The notes beneath the pieces were generated by a model. It did no database searches. It was given only the letters and a program-made list of their open reading frames with translations, and was not told where the DNA came from. From IMG/VR virus record IMGVR_UViG_3300045988_118832: a DNA stretch of 34,983 bases; one strand, 5' to 3'. Each line of letters begins with the position of its first letter. The first letter of the stretch is position 1. Source of the DNA: a virus. Its lineage: Duplodnaviria > Heunggongvirae > Uroviricota > Caudoviricetes. Made by a program: the position numbers and the translations under genes. Below are positions 2,769 through 24,693 of this stretch, in pieces.

Positions 2769-3118
2769 TACATAATCCTCACAGGGTGTTCAAACGTCTG
2801 CGGTGTGCCCGCGTTATCCGTGACGGTGATTAACAGCAACAACCAGCCGCGCTGGCCCGCTTTCGTGTCAACGGTAATGGATTTTGCCCGCCCGTCATCA
2901 AGCAGGGGCTGAAGCGCCTGACTGGCATACTGCGCCGCCAGCCTGTGAACACGGGAAACGTCTTTTTCCCGCTTCAGTTCGTGCAGGCGTGACCCCAGCG
3001 ACGCATCCGCCCAGTAACTGCCAAGCGGCGTCGCCAGTCGCAGATAAACCGCGTTATGAAGTGTATAAATCCGGCGGCGTTCGTAGTCGCCGGTTGCAGG
3101 TGAAATCGTCTGGTCCAT
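2768..3118 (-). CDS. Baseplate wedge protein, GPW/gp25 family (Mu gp46-like)
   Basis: 116 aa ORF, ATG at 3118, conserved position after the V-like gene. Confidence 0.65.
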   Translation of the reverse strand: MDQTISPATGDYERRRIYTLHNAVYLRLATPLGSYWADASLGSRLHELKREKDVSRVHRLAAQYASQALQPLLDDGRAKSITVDTKAGQRGWLLLLITVTDNAGTPQTFEHPVRIM

Positions 3119-3158
3119 GCCGCCAGTCTGGCAGCATGGACAGGCCAGAATCAGGTGA

Positions 3159-3171
3159 GGGTGTTCAGCAC
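3159..3171 (-). promoter_or_regulatory. Dyad element GGGTGTTCAGCAC, tail/baseplate block copy
   Basis: Sits between the V-like gene stop (3172) and the gp46-like gene start (3118). Confidence 0.45.
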
Positions 3172-3825
3172 TTAATTAACCGGCGTGTCAGACATGCCGT
3201 GTGGGGTCGGGTGTTTGTGCGTTCCGATTTTAATGCCATTAATGGTGACGTCAACGGAGGTAATCACACCACCCACATGGTTGATGTTGCCTTCAAAGGT
3301 GGCGGCATATTTCTTGCCCCCACTGATGGCCATGCCACCACTGCCGGTGATTTTACCTTCCACTGTCAGCTTATCGCTGGCCGTCAGTAACGGTGTCGTG
3401 AATGCGGCGTTCTCCTCTGCCTCAACCTCATAGCGTTTGCATTTCACCCGGTAAACGTCACATTCGGTTTCAACAATCCGCCCGCGCTTCAGTACGATTT
3501 TCGCGCCTTCATCGGTATACAGGGCCACCTCGCCGGGTTTCAGTTCCGTCAGGCGATATGCGCCGTGCTCTGTGGCCACGATGACGGTATGGGAGGTATT
3601 ACCGTTCAGCGGAACGGCAATACCCATAGAGCCGGGCGGCGGGGATGTGGTGAGGCCGTAATGCTGAAAATACTCCGCACCGTCCAGCTGCTCGCCTGCC
3701 AGCCCGTTCAGCTGGAGAAGCTGTACTTTGGTCGAACTGTCCACCGTACCGGTCACCACCCTGAATGCCTGGCGAACGGTGGCCAGTGCCTGCTGTATGC
3801 GCTGATTAACCTTGTCCCACATCAT
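3172..3825 (-). CDS. Baseplate assembly protein V-like / spike (Mu gp45-like)
   Basis: 217 aa ORF between the P-like hub gene and the gp46-like gene. Confidence 0.65.
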   Translation of the reverse strand: MMWDKVNQRIQQALATVRQAFRVVTGTVDSSTKVQLLQLNGLAGEQLDGAEYFQHYGLTTSPPPGSMGIAVPLNGNTSHTVIVATEHGAYRLTELKPGEVALYTDEGAKIVLKRGRIVETECDVYRVKCKRYEVEAEENAAFTTPLLTASDKLTVEGKITGSGGMAISGGKKYAATFEGNINHVGGVITSVDVTINGIKIGTHKHPTPHGMSDTPVN

Positions 3826-9568: not shown

Positions 9569-10990
9569 TTACAAAATCATGTCGATGCGACCGGCAAACA
9601 CATGCAGGCCGTTAACCACATCCGCCGGAACCACGCAGTCGAGACGGTTTGCATCTTTCCCGTTTCGCTGAACGCGCAGCTTTGCCTTATTCGCTTCCAC
9701 GTTCTCCAGAATCTCCGCTTCCTCCAGCTTGATCAGCACGTCATACAGTTCGCTTTCCACTTTTGCGATAGTGCGTGTGCTGAGTTTTTCGCGCGGGAAG
9801 CGAAGGCTGATGCGTTCGCGGCACGCCTTGCGGGTGTAGTCCAGCGTTCTGATGGACGTGATATCCAGTAACGAGACGTCAGTCACACCCTGTGCGTTAA
9901 CCGTGTATGTACTGACCGCACGCACAATCTGCACCGTGTTACCCGGGCCAACCTCAACCGGCGTCAGGCCGTTATGCAGAGCGTTTTCCTGCTCGTTACG
10001 GCTTTCACGCTGTGACATGGCGACCACATCCAGCCCGGACAGCGCCAGCGAGTTCAGCGGACGTGCCGGGTCTTCCTCGCCCGCCATCACAGCGCCGTAG
10101 ATGGCAGCCAGTACTGCTGGCAGCTTCACGGAGCCGCGATACCAGGGGACGGACATGCGCCCGCTGTTCACACCGGCTGCCAGGGTGATCCCGTTTCCGA
10201 GACTGCCCGTCCAGCCCGCACAGCCAATCGCGCCGCGCTGTTCCATCGCGTTCCCGGTTTTCTCCAGATGCTGCTTCAGGGCGGCGAGGGCTGGCGTGGT
10301 ACTGAACGGACAAATCAGAATGTTGTGACCGGCGGCAAAGACCGCATCCAGTGCGGGCTGAATATCCGGGTCCATTTCGCCGTTCGCCATCGGTGTGGCG
10401 CTCACGGTCAGACCACCTGCCGTGGTGGACGCTGACAGGGTGATGTCATTCCCCCAGGCACCTTTGGTCCGGGTGGTCACCGTCAGCTGAGAGGTTTCTG
10501 ATTTGTATTCCCCCGTCACCAGAAGCGAGGGCGTCTGCGCCATTGCTTCCACCAGTGCCGGAATGATTTTCGACGGTTCATCACCGGTTTCCACATCCAC
10601 CGTGACCTGCTCACCGGCAACCCATACCGACAGTGTGCCGCTGCTGATTGCTGTACCGTTGATGGTAACCGCGCCGGTTGCTGCCTTTCCTGCGCCAGTG
10701 TCTGCAATACCGATAACATCCAGTTGCAGATAGCTGTTGGCATTAATGGCCGCGCGCGCCATTGCAGCGGTCAGCGAACCGGCCCCGAAATACAAATCCG
10801 CTTCGTCTTCGGAATACACGGAAACGGCATTCAGGGGCGTGGCGGTGCCGCCTGACAGCATTGGACCAATCACCAGAACACGCTGTTCATTACCCGGCAG
10901 CGTGTTAACGGCCAGCCGGGTATTGAATTCAAAATGCACACCGGGCTTACGGATGCCGCCCGAAATGGTGTCAAACTGAATTTCACTCAT
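9569..10990 (-). CDS. Contractile tail sheath protein (Mu L / gp39-like)
   Basis: 473 aa ORF in conserved position upstream of the tube gene. Confidence 0.85.
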   Translation of the reverse strand: MSEIQFDTISGGIRKPGVHFEFNTRLAVNTLPGNEQRVLVIGPMLSGGTATPLNAVSVYSEDEADLYFGAGSLTAAMARAAINANSYLQLDVIGIADTGAGKAATGAVTINGTAISSGTLSVWVAGEQVTVDVETGDEPSKIIPALVEAMAQTPSLLVTGEYKSETSQLTVTTRTKGAWGNDITLSASTTAGGLTVSATPMANGEMDPDIQPALDAVFAAGHNILICPFSTTPALAALKQHLEKTGNAMEQRGAIGCAGWTGSLGNGITLAAGVNSGRMSVPWYRGSVKLPAVLAAIYGAVMAGEEDPARPLNSLALSGLDVVAMSQRESRNEQENALHNGLTPVEVGPGNTVQIVRAVSTYTVNAQGVTDVSLLDITSIRTLDYTRKACRERISLRFPREKLSTRTIAKVESELYDVLIKLEEAEILENVEANKAKLRVQRNGKDANRLDCVVPADVVNGLHVFAGRIDMIL

Positions 10991-11225
10991 CGGAACCCAC
11001 CTGTTTCTCTTTCTTCACCTTCGCTTTTACCTGCACGGCGTCCTGTTCAGCCGTCACGGTGGCTTCAGACTCATCCTTCACCAGAATCAGGTCACCGTCC
11101 TGAACGGCGCGCCGGTAATAAGCGGTGTTCTCAACGGTCACCGCTTCCGTAGTGATGTATTTCCGGGCGTTATCCTCCATCGGGAACTTCATCCCGGGAG
11201 CCGCCTTAACCTTCATTTTGTTCAT
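10983..11225 (-). CDS. Mu gp38-like small structural/assembly protein
   Basis: 80 aa ORF, overlapping start/stop with neighbours. Confidence 0.45.
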   Translation of the reverse strand: MNKMKVKAAPGMKFPMEDNARKYITTEAVTVENTAYYRRAVQDGDLILVKDESEATVTAEQDAVQVKAKVKKEKQVGSDE

Positions 11226-13950: not shown

Positions 13951-15075
13951 TTACTTTTCTCCTGCGTAACGGGCGATATCTTCTGGATCAACGCCCATCA
14001 TTGAACAAATGGCGATATCGATATCGACGTCATCGCCGGTTTTAATCTGCGCCGGGGCCGGTGACGGCGTTTGGGGTGGTTTGCCGCCCGTCTGGGTCTG
14101 ACTGAGCGCAACAAGTTTCGGTGCGTTATCCAGCCAGGACTTAAAGCCGTTGATATCGCGGCTGGCGTAATCTTTCGCCCAGTCTTCCTGTGCCGGAAGC
14201 AGTCGCCCGTCAGACAGCGCCGCCTGAATCAGTGCCCCGGCTTCGGCCTCACCGGACTGTTGCGCCAGTGCGGCATAACGCCCCTGAAGTTCTTCGAAGG
14301 CAGCAAGGGAAATGTGTTTTGACGGGTCATAGGCACTGGCTGACAGGCTGGCGATTTGCTCATCTTTCTGATTCAGCAGGGCCAGCAGGCTGACGGATGC
14401 CGCCGCCGTTCCCTGACCGTTCGAAATCATGTCAACGACCTTTTGCAGCTCGTTTTTGATATCTTCCGCCGTTGAGGTAACCGGGAGGTTAAGCATCCAG
14501 CGCAGACTGGACAGCAAATCGTTTAACAGTTCTTCATCCACTGTTGTGGTCTCCGTTTCAGTTGACAGACTCGCCAGACGGCTGGCCGCAGCCAGCATGA
14601 CCGCGTCCATACCGTCCAGCGCCGGGGTATTGGTCAGTGCGGCGTGTAACAGTTCGATGACTTCGCCGCGCCGGTTGTATCCAAATACCGGGGAAATAAA
14701 TTTGTACTCTCCGGCGGCAATCATGGCCGCCGCGTTCTCCGTCCACTCCACACCGATGGCATACAGGCCCGAACCTTCACGCCATTCCACCTGGCTGAAC
14801 CAGCCCGCCGCCGGGGCAGGCTTGCCGTTGTTTACGGCGCGCAGCGTCTGATGTTCGTAATCAATGACAAAAGGCGTGGTACGGGCTGCCACCTGTGCGA
14901 CAAGCTGCGCGGCCAGTCCGGCAGTCAGCACCCATTTACCGCTTTCGACTTCATCGGTATACGGGCGACCATCCACCGCGCTGAACTCGCCTGCCGGAAA
15001 CAGCTGGATTTCGCTGTGGGTTGCTTTAGTAATTTCGAGGCTTAACGCCGCAATGTTCATCTTCATGCGCGGCAT
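13951..15075 (-). CDS. Head maturation protease with C-terminal scaffold domain (Mu I/Z-like)
   Basis: ORF 13951..15120; the GTG at 15120 lies inside the conserved dyad element, so the ATG at 15075 (MPRMKMNIAAL...) is preferred. Ala/Gln-rich C-terminal half is scaffold-like. Confidence 0.75.
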   Translation of the reverse strand: MPRMKMNIAALSLEITKATHSEIQLFPAGEFSAVDGRPYTDEVESGKWVLTAGLAAQLVAQVAARTTPFVIDYEHQTLRAVNNGKPAPAAGWFSQVEWREGSGLYAIGVEWTENAAAMIAAGEYKFISPVFGYNRRGEVIELLHAALTNTPALDGMDAVMLAAASRLASLSTETETTTVDEELLNDLLSSLRWMLNLPVTSTAEDIKNELQKVVDMISNGQGTAAASVSLLALLNQKDEQIASLSASAYDPSKHISLAAFEELQGRYAALAQQSGEAEAGALIQAALSDGRLLPAQEDWAKDYASRDINGFKSWLDNAPKLVALSQTQTGGKPPQTPSPAPAQIKTGDDVDIDIAICSMMGVDPEDIARYAGEK

Positions 15076-15094
15076 GATGACGGAAGGGGAACAC

Positions 15095-15122
15095 GGGGTA
15101 CTGTGGAGGGTGTTCAGCACCC
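15095..15122 (-). promoter_or_regulatory. Dyad element GGGTGTTCAGCACCC with conserved 5' flank, head block copy
   Basis: GGGTACTGTGGAGGGTGTTCAGCACCC, 20-47 nt upstream of the protease/scaffold ATG; near-identical to the 23101-23128 copy. Confidence 0.5.
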
Positions 15123-15158
15123 TGCCATAACGGGAAAGGATAAAAGGGGAAATAAAAC

Positions 15159-15183
15159 CGTTTTTAAAACCCTTTTAAAAACG
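15159..15183. promoter_or_regulatory. Perfect AT-rich palindrome CGTTTTTAAAA-CCC-TTTTAAAAACG in the G/I intergenic region
   Basis: 11-bp arms with 3-bp spacer, read directly from the sequence. Confidence 0.4.
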
Positions 15184-15275
15184 ATTCTGGCGGCATTTAT
15201 GGGGTGCGGTGCTGCAATGCCTCATCCGTGAGGCGTTTATGTCGTCAGAAGCGATTACAGCGCGCTTCTGGTCAT

Positions 15276-15827
15276 TCAGTCAATCACACGCGCAAAATAG
15301 CGGTTTGCGGTGTTCTCCAGCTCGTCGATGTCGTCCTGTACAAGCTGAAGGAAGGGGCGCGCGGGCATGTTGACCGTATACGCTCCGACCGTTGCGCTCT
15401 GTACAAAATTACTGTTGCGCTTCTTCACAAAGCGGGTGCTGACGCTGCCGTTCCTGTACTGCTTAAAATACAGGTTCTGCGTCCGTGCCTGATGGCGTAT
15501 TTCGCCGCCTTCGTTGTGGATACGGGCATAACGGACGTTTGTCCCGACCGTGGCCTCGTTATTGTTAACCGCAGAGCGGATACTGGCAGCCAGTCGCCCG
15601 GACTTCTGAAGGATTTGCCCGGGGCCGCGCCGTTTCGCATAGGCCGGACTCCAGCCCATCCATTTCGGGCGACCCTGTTGTTCAAAGTTAGTTTCAACCG
15701 CATCCAGCATGGAGCCTGCAAGTGCCGTCATCAGGTCGCGCCGGTCCTTCACGGAACGAATCAGTTTCCCCAGCGTGGTGTTATACGCGCTTAAATCAAT
15801 CTTAATATCCAGTTTACCGGTGCTCAT
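15276..15827 (-). CDS. Virion morphogenesis protein (Mu G-like)
   Basis: 183 aa ORF, overlaps the F-like gene by 4 nt. Confidence 0.7.
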   Translation of the reverse strand: MSTGKLDIKIDLSAYNTTLGKLIRSVKDRRDLMTALAGSMLDAVETNFEQQGRPKWMGWSPAYAKRRGPGQILQKSGRLAASIRSAVNNNEATVGTNVRYARIHNEGGEIRHQARTQNLYFKQYRNGSVSTRFVKKRNSNFVQSATVGAYTVNMPARPFLQLVQDDIDELENTANRYFARVID

Positions 15828-20213: not shown

Positions 20214-20954
20214 TCACACCTGCACTGCTTCTGTCTGGGCTTTTTCGATTCGTGCGCAGGCGATATCAAAATACTGGTTAGTCATTTCAATGCCGGTAAA
20301 CCGTCCGCCACGGGCAAGTACAGGGATGGCGGTAGTGCCGCTTCCCATAAACGGATCAAGGACGTGCGCATCCGGTGTCAGCGGTTTAACCAGCTCAGCC
20401 ATCAGCTGAACCGGCTTTGCGGTCATGTGCAGTTTTTCGGACGGGACGACACGCTGCGTAATCACACCCGGGAACGGGCCACCGTGCGGGCATTTGTCGA
20501 GTTTTCCGTTGCTGCCCCAGACCACATACTCGGCCTGATGCCGAAAATAGCCAGTGTGTGGCGCACGGGAAGCCTGCGTTTTATCCCAGACAACCAGACC
20601 ACGCCACAGCACACCACCGGCCTGAAATGCATCTGTAAGCGCCGGTAGTTGTCGCCAGTCACTGAACACCATGAAATAACCGCCGGAATTCAGCCTGTGC
20701 AATGCATGAGATATCCACATGGAACACCAGAACGCCCAGCTGCGCTGGTCGCGGTTATCGCCGGTGAACTCGGCATACTGGGTGTGACCGATATACTTGT
20801 CCGAAGGGGCCATGCTGCGGTCTGATTTGTGTGTACCACCACTGCTGTAAGGCGGGTCGGTAATGACGGCATCAAAACGTTCGGATAACGCCGGCAGCAC
20901 ATCAAGAACATCACCGCAATACAACGTTGCGTTACCAATAATCTGTTTTTGCAT
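20214..20954 (-). CDS. DNA methyltransferase (N6-adenine/N4-cytosine type, DPPY motif)
   Basis: 246 aa; motif AVITDPPYSSGG plus FMGSGTT-type AdoMet motif. No adjacent restriction endonuclease gene seen. Confidence 0.8.
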   Translation of the reverse strand: MQKQIIGNATLYCGDVLDVLPALSERFDAVITDPPYSSGGTHKSDRSMAPSDKYIGHTQYAEFTGDNRDQRSWAFWCSMWISHALHRLNSGGYFMVFSDWRQLPALTDAFQAGGVLWRGLVVWDKTQASRAPHTGYFRHQAEYVVWGSNGKLDKCPHGGPFPGVITQRVVPSEKLHMTAKPVQLMAELVKPLTPDAHVLDPFMGSGTTAIPVLARGGRFTGIEMTNQYFDIACARIEKAQTEAVQV

Positions 20955-22582: not shown

Positions 22583-22964
22583 TTCCACCCCCTCCGCCGC
22601 GCAGTCTGGAAAACAGGCCGAACAGCGATGAAATTTCCTGTTGATAAAGAAAGGTCAGTATCTTGATGGATAACGCCGAGACACCGACCGCACACAATGC
22701 ATCGAGCGGCTTGTCGTTGTAGTGGGTCAGCCACTGCATCAGTGACGCAGCCACGCCAGCCCCCAGAACGCCAACCACAAATGCGACGAGCAGGTGGATG
22801 GCCATTCGCCAGACCGGGATTTCTTTCTGCTGCGTGACAACAAAAAGCGCCCCGGCAAACGCGCCCACCACAACCCCGAAATCGGTATTGGTGAGAAGAC
22901 CAAACACACTGGCACCACCAATGGTGACTGCCACAGCTCCACCGCCTGATAAGGGTTCAGACAT
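22572..22964 (-). CDS. Membrane protein, holin candidate
   Basis: ATG at 22964 with AGGAGA 5 nt upstream (MSEPLSGGG...); Gly/Ala/Val-rich multi-helix protein; first gene after the lysis-block dyad element. Confidence 0.55.
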   Translation of the reverse strand: MSEPLSGGGAVAVTIGGASVFGLLTNTDFGVVVGAFAGALFVVTQQKEIPVWRMAIHLLVAFVVGVLGAGVAASLMQWLTHYNDKPLDALCAVGVSALSIKILTFLYQQEISSLFGLFSRLRGGGGGNGK

Positions 22965-23100
22965 GAGTTTCTCCTGTAAATCTGAGCCACTGACGGCCCG
23001 TAAATAACACCCTGTCAAAGGCACAGAAGCCTTTTGCAGGGCGCTATCCCTTAAGGTGCCTTGTGGTCTGAGTGGACAGGGTAAACGGTCTGGTGTGGTG

Positions 23101-23128
23101 GGTACTGCTGGGGGTGTTCAGCACCCCC
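23101..23128 (-). promoter_or_regulatory. Dyad element GGGGGTG-TTCAG-CACCCCC, lysis block copy
   Basis: Perfect 7-bp inverted repeat around TTCAG, about 150 nt upstream of the first lysis gene, downstream of the terminator after the Mor/C-like gene. Confidence 0.5.
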
Positions 23129-23466: not shown

Positions 23467-23934
23467 TTAATCAAAAAGCCCCACCTGGGTGGGGCTTTTC
23501 AGCGAAGTCTGTTTTTGTCGTCGGTGTATCAGCTGCCATGCGTACCGGTCTGAAATCCCGTAGCGGGGACAGAGCAGTGCCAGCGCCTGCCGGTGTGAGC
23601 ATCCGTCTTTTACATGCTGCTGTAAATCAGCCATAAAACGGGTGTTACGCAGGGCACGTAACGCATGATCACAACGGGGAATGTAAAACGGTGCACCGCC
23701 AAGAAAGCGGATCAGTTTGTTGATTTCGTCTTCGGTCAGCACATCATGTAACAGGGCATGGACACCGCCGGTGCGTCCGGCGTGTGCGCCGGTTTTACCG
23801 CTTAACGTCACGCCACCAAAAGAACGGATTAACCGGGTCAGGGCGGGGAAGCCAATCACGCTAATCAGTTGCTGTACGGAATCGGGCAGCAGTGCCTGCG
23901 CATCGCGAAGATCTGTTTCACTGAAGGTCTGCAT
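23467..23934 (-). CDS. Mor/C-family transcriptional activator of middle/late genes
   Basis: 155 aa; region LIRFLGGAPFYIPR ... RYGISDRYAWQLI matches the Mu Mor GG-x3-YIPR motif and C-terminal HTH. Preceded by a TATAAT about 36 nt upstream of the ATG. Confidence 0.8.
   Translation of the reverse strand: MQTFSETDLRDAQALLPDSVQQLISVIGFPALTRLIRSFGGVTLSGKTGAHAGRTGGVHALLHDVLTEDEINKLIRFLGGAPFYIPRCDHALRALRNTRFMADLQQHVKDGCSHRQALALLCPRYGISDRYAWQLIHRRQKQTSLKSPTQVGLFD
23473..23500. terminator. Bidirectional intrinsic terminator after the Mor/C-like gene
   Basis: AAAAA-AGCCCCACC-TG-GGTGGGGCT-TTTT: 9-bp GC-rich stem flanked by A- and T-runs. Confidence 0.65.
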
Positions 23935-23996
23935 GATGGCGTCTCCGGTAGTAACTTACTGTTATTATAGCCATACATGATCGCCTGTACAGACCA

Positions 23997-24023
23997 CAAA
24001 AAAGCCCCTGCAAGGCAGGGGCT
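23997..24023 (-). terminator. Intrinsic terminator ending the early operon after the GemA-like gene
   Basis: Minus strand reads AGCCCCTGC-CTT-GCAGGGGCT followed by TTTTTTGTGG; starts 7 nt after the GemA-like stop. Confidence 0.65.
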
Positions 24024-24029
24024 GATTCT

Positions 24030-24443
24030 TTATTGTTTACGTGCTGCTCTGGCTCGTTTTCTGGCGTCTTTTGTCAGCGCCACCATCACCCCGAACAGCT
24101 GATCATCTGTCAGCCATTCGATCACATGTTGCTTATACATGTGAGATGCCAGTCCTTCCGCATACGCCCAGGAACGACCGGCATCAGCCAGCAACGCCTC
24201 AATTTTGGATAATACCGATTTTCTGCTCATTGCAACACGGGGGCGGCGACCTTTACCGGCGGGCGCTTTGCGCGGAAATCCCTGTTCGTGCATGTATTCC
24301 CGGATGATGCGCAGTTCATCGAGATTGCAGCGTGTGGTGCTGGTTTTACCGGTCAGGCGGGCCAGCGTCTGACGATAAAGGGCATCATCCCACCCCAGAT
24401 ACGCCTGACCGGCTTTAATGGCTCCGATCATCTTTTTCAGCAT
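24030..24443 (-). CDS. GemA-like protein (Mu gp16 family)
   Basis: ATG at 24443 with GAGGA upstream; MLKKMIGAIKAGQAYLGWDDALYRQTLARLTGK... resembles the GemA/DUF1018 N-terminus as I recall it; followed by a terminator. Confidence 0.65.
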   Translation of the reverse strand: MLKKMIGAIKAGQAYLGWDDALYRQTLARLTGKTSTTRCNLDELRIIREYMHEQGFPRKAPAGKGRRPRVAMSRKSVLSKIEALLADAGRSWAYAEGLASHMYKQHVIEWLTDDQLFGVMVALTKDARKRARAARKQ

Positions 24444-24693
24444 GTTTGTTATCCTCAAAACGCACGGTAAAACGTGAAACACCAATCCCCGACAGGAACG
24501 CGGCGGCACGGTCAAGAGACAGCCACGTCTTGTAATCGCCACGGCGTTCCTGTAGAAAATAGGACACCCCGGCGCGGCGATTCACAGCGAAGAGGTGATA
24601 CACACCATCGAACCGCTGCACGACGAACTCATCCACGCCACCGCTTTCAGCCTGCTGCCGGAAGGCTGCCATTCCGATTTGTTCAATTTTCAT
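24415..24693 (-). CDS. Hypothetical early protein (93 aa)
   Basis: ATG at 24693 (MKIEQIGMAAF...); a perfect 10-bp inverted repeat lies immediately upstream. Confidence 0.4.
   Translation of the reverse strand: MKIEQIGMAAFRQQAESGGVDEFVVQRFDGVYHLFAVNRRAGVSYFLQERRGDYKTWLSLDRAAAFLSGIGVSRFTVRFEDNKHAEKDDRSH

Follow-up and report, generated by a model that had tools for sequence, protein, structure and literature searches.

In phage Mu, the late activator C acts at a 16-bp imperfect dyad that is centred at -43.5 and overlaps the -35 region (PMC2582627). The Mu late promoters have -10 hexamers and no -35 element, and the bases just downstream of the dyad matter as well (PMC2582627; 2025 Mor/C structure preprint). 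A locus of similar design is found in the IMG/VR virus record IMGVR_UViG_3300045988_118832, a stretch of 34,983 nucleotides (hereafter the window) that is identified as a Mu-like Escherichia coli prophage with all of its genes on the minus strand. Three copies of a short repeated element in this window very probably head late promoters that depend on a Mor/C-family activator. The likeness to the C-dependent promoters of Mu (Plys, PI, PP and Pmom) extends to a Mor/C-family gene just upstream of the lysis genes, several 16-bp imperfect dyads predicted to lie at about -43.5, over a missing -35 element, a weak -10 hexamer, conserved bases just downstream of the dyad, and sites placed before the lysis genes, before gene I and within the baseplate genes. 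With the Mu promoter Pm and its activator Mor, the locus shares the protein family, a predicted -43.5 geometry and a GC-containing dyad with arms of 5-6 bp (PMC4287176; 2025 preprint).

The locus also departs from Mu in several respects. Recognition is predicted to involve GCTGAAs-cc-sTTCAGC, whereas the Mu site is TTAT-N6-ATAA / ccATAAcCCC, and conservation is strongest in the distal half and spacer here but in the proximal half in Mu. A first-pass annotation of the window had placed all three copies at positions analogous to Mu late promoters, which is borne out for lys and I; the third, however, falls in the gp45-gp46 gap, while PP of Mu is found within N, upstream of P, and no mom-type fourth promoter was found in the prophage. 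One activator gene replaces the cascade of Mor and C. Mu Pm overlaps the early terminator and drives C, whereas here the activator gene follows a terminator and a TGTACA-N16-TATAAT sequence, with no copy of the element. Outside the Mor/C family, the Ogr/B late promoters of P2 and 186 resemble this system in using a small phage activator and partial-dyad sites repeated before each late operon. Ogr/B proteins belong to a zinc finger family, and their site, TGT-N12-ACA, is centred near -55.

Since all prophage genes lie on the minus strand, the element is to be read in its gene-strand form, GGGTGCTGAACACCC. A 13-mer of that strand, GTGCTGAACACCC, is common to the three sites (3159-3171, 15108-15120 and 23112-23124), against 0.09 matches expected, and none of 100 shuffles reached three. 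The 15-mer GGGTGTTCAGCACCC (plus strand), which had initially been counted three times, is exact at only two places, 15108-15122 and 23112-23126; the third copy, GGGTGTTCAGCACTT at 3159-3173, has two mismatches and keeps 13 of 15 positions. Similarly, the 27-bp stretch reported to be shared by the head and lysis copies is real, though it is identical at 24 of 27 positions and consists of GGGTACTG, four nucleotides of which three differ, and the 15-mer. All three copies are intergenic and each stands ahead of a late block, as had been proposed: the holin/endolysin genes (holin ATG at 22964, as called by the Prokaryotic Genome Annotation Pipeline, PGAP), the head protease/scaffold gene I (ATG at 15064-15066, minus strand, A at 15066, where both the PGAP call and the PHROG alignment begin), and the baseplate gene gp46 (ATG at 3116-3118, minus strand, A at 3118). 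The gp46 copy sits in the 53-nt gap that follows the gp45 stop codon. A distance of 35-50 nt from two of the start codons had been noted, and the element indeed ends 42 nt before the A of the I start codon and 41 nt before that of gp46; the lysis copy lies about 150 nt from the true holin start. If the longest open reading frames (ORFs) are taken mechanically, I would begin at a GTG at 15120 and the holin at a GTG at 23024, which carries both over or towards the promoter elements; homology, Shine-Dalgarno (SD) sequences and PGAP place the true starts at 15066 and 22964. A search for a fourth, mom-like copy returned none, either in the window or in the tail-fibre end of the prophage that lies beyond it, which was read from a second E. 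coli genome whose copy shows 99.9% identity over the 2.1 kb compared.

The symmetry within this element becomes clear when it is compared with its relatives, for which loci were collected with the I protein (43 from species-representative genomes and 79 from viral contigs) and with gp46 (80 loci). Nucleotide searches were less productive: an exact scan for the 15-mer in viral contigs returned more than 120 loci that are nearly all single chance hits, with the two-hit locus L074 as the only relative, and blastn of the I region against isolated phages gave distant matches only. In about 120 relatives, the conserved symmetry is a 16-bp dyad, GCTGAAs-cc-sTTCAGC, located 4 bp nearer the gene than the GGGTG-N5-CACCC repeat visible in the window, and in the wider set the block resolves to a palindrome of 14-16 bp, [G]CTGAAs-cc-sTTCAG[C]. 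The palindrome is perfect in Natronospirillum, where GCTGAAGCCCTTCAGC is present twice. Enteric relatives in Intestinirhabdus, Buttiauxella, Trabulsiella, Photorhabdus and Xenorhabdus carry GCTGAAC(C/A)CCCTCA(G/A)C upstream of I at a fixed distance from the ATG. More distant lineages have other palindromes at the same place, including CGGAAG-cc-CTTCCG, CGAAT-cc-ATTCG, GTGAAG-cc-CTTCAC, TTAACC-ca-GGTTAA and CTAACC-cc-GGTTAG. In each phage, its own version recurs at the lysis genes, about 8 kb upstream of I, and a second time at the baseplate genes, 9-12 kb downstream, where the locus extends that far; the gp46 promoters of 49 distinct relatives have the same layout. Thus one site is repeated before each late unit, with three copies in the window and two or three in relatives.

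Applied to the window, the family dyad predicts three activator sites, which take the form GCTGAACACCC followed by CCAGC, TCCAC or TCACC. The Plys site, GCTGAACACCCCCAGC, occupies 23107-23122 (minus; centre 23114.5), and the 15-mer at 23112-23126 overlaps its distal half. The PI site, GCTGAACACCCTCCAC, spans 15103-15118 (minus) with its centre at 15110.5, or -44.5 from the A of the I start codon, while the Pgp46 site, GCTGAACACCCTCACC, spans 3154-3169 (minus), starts 3 nt past the gp45 stop codon (3172-3174) and is centred at 3161.5, or -43.5 from the A of the gp46 start codon. Directly downstream of the PI dyad is the box AGTACCCC (15095-15102, minus; -36 to -29), which is common to the lysis promoter (23099-23106). 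Its position corresponds to that part of the -35-less region of Mu late promoters in which bases adjoining the C site are needed, and it may have a comparable role. At the same spacing from each dyad lies a -10-like hexamer: CATCAT for PI (15074-15079, minus; -13 to -8), followed by the GC-rich discriminator GCCGCGC; CAGACT for Pgp46 (3125-3130, minus; -12 to -7), with its T at -7; and TACCCT for Plys (23078-23083, minus). All three fit the pattern xAxxxT that is expected of the -10 hexamer of a Mu-type late promoter. From its hexamer, the Plys transcript is predicted to start near 23071 (within 2 nt), so that the dyad centre would lie about 43.5 bp upstream of +1 and the leader would be about 107 nt long.

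The spacing is not peculiar to the window. When all dyads of 14-16 bp with 5 or more of 6 pairs symmetric were measured against every ATG in 77 non-redundant regions upstream of I, the distances from dyad centre to A peaked at 43.5 (32 cases), 44.5 (17) and 45.5 (9) in this unselected histogram. The other bins held 5 or fewer, save for a secondary peak at 35.5/36.5 (12 and 8) that is attributed to an ATG 8-9 nt further upstream, in the 5' arm of an inverted repeat. A gp46-only histogram is too sparse to read, as few of its dyads pass the 5/6 filter. A profile anchored on the ATGs of I shows A at -11 in 24 of 37 sequences, T at -7 in 24 of 37, a GC-rich stretch from -6 to -1 with C at -1 in 32 of 37, and A at +1. 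Comparable values are found at gp46, where the starts were fixed by protein homology alone (A-11 in 25 of 40, T-7 in 23 of 40, pyrimidine at -1 in 39 of 40). No full sigma-70 consensus promoter was detected in the 500 bp around the head copy (14900-15400), as expected if the promoter depends on an activator. Two other assignments were considered and set aside: a reading of CTGAAC... as an extracytoplasmic function (ECF) sigma or sigma-54 promoter, whose downstream parts, by inspection, fit poorly and are unconserved, and a GATAAT sequence taken as the -10 element of the Photorhabdus locus L123, with a start at the foot of a hairpin, since the family profile places A-11 and T-7 in the register of the ATG.

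The presumed trans-acting factor for all three sites is a 155-amino-acid protein encoded at 23467-23934 (minus). Its earlier assignment to the Mor/C family is confirmed by a Pfam Mor score of 28.3 bits (cut-off 24.9) and by a match to phrog_836, 'late transcriptional activator', at 1e-42. Iterated searching from this protein over the fetched loci recovers both Mu C and Mor, and the alignment shows a GG..FYIPR linker, a C-terminal helix-turn-helix with the sequence GISDRYAWQLI and a C-terminal Q..LF tail. A PDB sequence search retrieved Mu C only, and weakly (E about 0.4), which is suggestive and was not used as proof. Relatives with GCTGAAC..TCAGC sites have recognition helices close to GISDRYAWQLI. 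Across lineages, SDRxxW and TERQVY occur with CTGAA half-sites, TDRQV(L/M) with CCGAAT, TERQIR and TVRHIR with CGGAAG, and the LSQPQIY of Mu C with TTAT/ATAA, a pattern suggestive of co-variation between recognition helix and half-site.

Together, these features argue that the three copies represent the conserved core of an operator for the single Mor/C-family activator of the prophage, a core made up of the promoter-distal half-site GCTGAA and the C-rich spacer. The corresponding promoters would be sigma-70 late promoters with a weak -10 hexamer and no -35 element, at which the activator, as in Mu, would occupy a 16-bp imperfect dyad whose centre lies about 43.5-44.5 bp before +1, and would recruit RNA polymerase. 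The comparative evidence thus strongly supports the first-pass proposal of a DNA site for a Mor/C-like late activator, with a corrected dyad. The mechanism as a whole, including activator binding and the positions of the transcription starts, is drawn from sequence comparison, and the complete account, an operator for the activator with leaderless transcripts from PI and Pgp46 and a leadered one from Plys, is judged probable.

The dyad that had first been described is GGGTG-N5-CACCC, and it could be held that GGGTG-CTGAA-CACCC is the operator in this E. coli lineage, the specificity of the activator having shifted. It is exact in two promoters with perfect 5+5 symmetry, none of the close variants in the E. 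coli lineage (L165-L181) has lost GGGTG from its head or lysis copy, and the proximal half of the family dyad is degenerate in the window. At the third promoter, however, the left arm is AAGTG, which leaves three symmetric pairs. In the sister lineage L182/L267, whose I and gp46 proteins are 79-88% identical, the three promoters have AGGTG, TACTG and AACTG in place of GGGTG, each combined with CTCCC, yet GCTGA-N6-(T/C)CAG(C/T) is retained in perfect or near-perfect form; in the enteric relatives the left-arm position reads CTACC, TATGC or CACCT. Even within E. coli, the A of CACCC is polymorphic (CACCC, CTCCC, CCCCC), with T at that base in several lysis copies and C in a single baseplate copy. 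The centre of such an operator would fall at -48.5/-47.5 instead of the family value of -43.5, and the recognition helix resembles those of GCTGAAC..TCAGC users. Because its arms vary in E. coli and in the sister lineage while the GCTGA dyad is kept, GGGTG-N5-CACCC reads as an overlap specific to this lineage and not as the family-wide symmetry, and it is unlikely to be the operator.

Other explanations assign the element to RNA or to no function at all. A hairpin in the 5' leader, to which a Com-like translational activator or some other RNA-binding regulator would bind, had been offered as the alternative to a DNA operator, and the predicted folding of the lysis copy (-21 kcal/mol, z -4.1) and of the head copy (-12.5 kcal/mol, z -1.8) would agree with it, as would the proximity of the element to two start codons without an SD sequence and the presence of a separate hairpin that does bury the gp46 AUG. 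The baseplate copy, however, is unfolded (-2 kcal/mol, z +0.75), relatives keep the sequence and not the pairing, with a left arm that varies freely, and Rfam has no match in the window. Moreover, the element lies at about -52 to -37 from the predicted +1, upstream of the -10-like hexamer, and would fall outside the transcript of its own promoter, at a spacing that matches the operator geometry of Mu C and Mor; the short distance to the start codon is better explained by transcription that starts at the ATG. A leader hairpin is consequently very improbable. Much the same observations bear on the idea of an operon-end role, in which the copies would terminate, process or, as 3' hairpins, stabilise the upstream transcript. 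The copies do lie at boundaries between gene blocks with GC-rich hairpins close by, and the Mor site of Mu Pm falls on the early terminator hairpin, but no T-run follows any copy (TCCACAG, CCAGCAG, TCACCTG), the third copy has no stem, and a terminator scan of the gene strand over 14900-15400 is empty. Nor could an operon-end role explain the strict distance to the next ATG and -10-like hexamer across distant phages, which leaves it a slim chance. Finally, the 24/27 agreement of the head and lysis copies, flanks included, might be a functionless by-product of recent duplication or gene conversion between intergenic regions. Against this, dozens of distant phages hold two or three lineage-specific dyads with the same spacing at homologous positions, and the core is invariant among E. 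coli variants while the flanks vary, so that such an origin is extremely improbable.

The putative activator-dependent promoters PI and Pgp46 appear to be joined to their start codons with little or no leader. Pairing with the anti-SD sequence, computed over the upstream 20 nt of the 46 PGAP-called prophage genes, is weakest for I (+1.2 kcal/mol) and gp46 (-1.5 kcal/mol), neither of which has an SD sequence, whereas the remaining genes reach -2.2 kcal/mol or lower and mostly fall between -6 and -12 kcal/mol. The start codon is ATG in all 37 I and 40 gp46 members profiled, with GTG in the gp46 of one Klebsiella phage. The missing SD, the -10 register and the distance to the operator are most simply reconciled if transcription begins with the A of these ATG codons (15066 and 3118); the head protease/scaffold I and the first baseplate-wedge gene, gp46, would then be translated from leaderless mRNAs, an interpretation that is favoured on balance. 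The Plys transcript, by comparison, would have about 107 nt ahead of the holin start codon, with a conventional SD visible as AGGAG-N7-ATG. Leaderless mRNAs with a 5'-AUG are translated by E. coli. The predicted arrangement resembles the leaderless lambda cI mRNA from PRM in that +1 coincides with the A of the AUG and no SD is present, but the lambda cI type concerns repressor genes expressed at a low level in lysogens, whereas the starts predicted here head late structural operons.

In many relatives the -10 hexamer is also enclosed by a GC-rich inverted repeat whose end falls at the ATG or within it; perfect stems of at least 6 bp are present in 24 of 101 sequences versus 4 of 505 shuffles. 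In the window, the gp46 repeat TCCATGCTGCCA-GAC-TGGCGGCATGGA (3114-3140, minus) places CAGACT at the top and the ATG in the 3' arm. A read-through RNA would fold there into a 13-bp hairpin that buries the gp46 AUG, the stem forming part of a 77-nt fold of -29.6 kcal/mol (z -3.65). At gp46 promoters the arms vary in a compensating manner, and G:T pairs outnumber A:C pairs by 19 to 2 in a count whose lineages are not independent, which hints at selection on the sense RNA; I promoters show no such bias (4 versus 4), and the repeat is minimal in those of enteric relatives. This resembles Mu com-mom, in which the start codon is held in an inhibitory stem, with respect to the gp46 AUG in the 3' arm, the conserved stem of 12-13 bp and the excess of G:T over A:C. 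The gp46 hairpin differs in being separate from the repeated element and in lacking an SD, and the simplest relief of its stem may be a transcription start inside the stem, rather than a binding protein. As a transcript started at the ATG cannot form the hairpin and a read-through transcript can, the gp46-type repeat is proposed, with low confidence, to keep read-through RNA untranslatable.

A broader hypothesis, put forward tentatively and with somewhat less than even expectation, is that the late head and baseplate operons in a large clade of Mu-like transposable phages begin with leaderless mRNAs, with an AUG-burying repeat as a lock. Its members would include this E. coli prophage, prophages of Photorhabdus, Klebsiella and Aquitalea, and Pseudomonas phage DMS3, and in some of them the lysis operon may be leaderless too. 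The Mor/C operator, the -10 hexamer and the start codon would form one fixed 52-bp module, with the -10 hexamer of many members in the loop of a GC-rich inverted repeat and the AUG in its 3' arm. In RNA that reads through from the preceding operon the start codon would be buried, leaving only transcripts from the activator-dependent promoter translatable, such that one DNA segment would act as both promoter and translational lock. The kind of promoter is itself known, but the operator sequence is new, and such a fixed operator/-10/start-codon layout was not described in the literature searched.

Several observations weigh against parts of this account. The promoter-proximal half-site is degenerate in the window (TCCAC, CCAGC and TCACC versus TCAGC), and the dyad of the window is therefore clear only by comparison with relatives. 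The co-variation of recognition helix and half-site rests on four to five independent classes, so few that it can only be suggestive. As for the leaderless starts, the PI hexamer CATCAT is one base out of the canonical register, so that +1 could be C15067 with a leader of 1 nt. The Plys, PI and Pmom leaders of Mu are 15-26 nt long and contain an SD, whereas PI and Pgp46 here are predicted to abut the ATG, and hence leaderless starts are no rule of the family. Nothing relevant was found in the literature on leaderless late mRNAs or transcription start maps of Mu-like phages, D3112 and DMS3. The G:T excess at gp46, moreover, points to an RNA role that would be unexpected if only ATG-started transcripts were made, although read-through transcripts may account for it.

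In DMS3 (locus L243, NC_008717.1), the same module, consisting of GTTGAACCCCTTC..., xAxxxT, GGCGGC and ATG, occurs at locus positions 10950-11115 and 2150-2215, before the protease gene and before an ORF that lacks annotation and precedes the lysis genes; the predicted +1 positions in the DMS3 record are about 19052 and 10263. For the protease, homology backs the ATG that abuts the promoter, 111 nt upstream of the annotated start. The anti-CRISPR/aca1 genes of this phage are located between G and the protease promoter.

By Pfam and PHROGs, the gene order of the window is that of Mu: transposase A/B, GemA (24030-24542, minus), the Mor/C gene, a 95-amino-acid ORF, holin and endolysin, then terminase, portal, F, G, the protease/scaffold gene I (13951-15066, minus), head and tail genes, and baseplate genes gp44-gp47. 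The 2.1-kb segment 22500-24600, which holds the start of the lysis genes, the activator gene and GemA, is matched in 61 of 5,426 complete E. coli genomes; in 58 of these the match covers 80% or more of the segment with an identity of at least 95%. The gap between GemA and the activator gene (23963-24021, minus) contains the terminator GCCCCTGC-CTT-GCAGGGGC-T6 followed by TGTACA-N16-TATAAT, so the only Mor/C gene of the window seems to be under an ordinary sigma-70 promoter and not a Mor-type middle promoter. A further terminator-like hairpin, GCCCCACC-CA-GGTGGGGC-T5, lies within the last codons of the activator gene (about 23470-23495, minus), just before the 95-amino-acid ORF (phrog_7152), a position occupied by another gene in some E. 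coli variants. Three Photorhabdus/Xenorhabdus prophages (L123, L124 and L223) have two Mor/C paralogues, like Mu, at locus positions of about 480-2100, together with two additional CTGAAC-type motifs directly upstream of the second one, an arrangement suggestive of autoregulation or of a Mor-to-C-type cascade. The spacer between G and I in the window holds an AT-rich palindrome, CGTTTTTAAAA-ccc-TTTTAAAAACG (15159-15183), about 93-117 bp upstream of the predicted PI start, which is kept in enteric relatives and in Klebsiella phage ST405-OXA48phi1.1. In Mu, the same spacer has similar motifs, TTTTTTAAAACG / GATTTTTAAACCGG, beside the annotated strong gyrase cut site, and the palindrome could be a UP-like element or part of a gyrase site. 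A DNA methyltransferase gene called by PGAP (20214-20954, minus) is located within the late lysis-packaging operon, where a DUF1804 gene and the large terminase gene flank it; neither a mom-like gene nor a fourth promoter was seen.

These comparisons supply a predicted operator sequence and promoter map for the Mu-like prophage present in those 61 of 5,426 complete E. coli genomes, and they yield a rule for finding Mu-like late promoters: a dyad, about 20 nt, xAxxxT, six GC-rich nucleotides and an ATG. They also explain recurrent mis-annotation of start codons, as at the DMS3 protease. Half-site specificity among Mor/C activators appears to have diversified along with the recognition helix, a point of use both for understanding orthogonal activator-promoter pairs and for engineering them. 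If the leaderless starts are real, abundant late structural genes of a whole phage clade would rely on SD-independent initiation, which would be unusual for phages of gamma- and betaproteobacteria.

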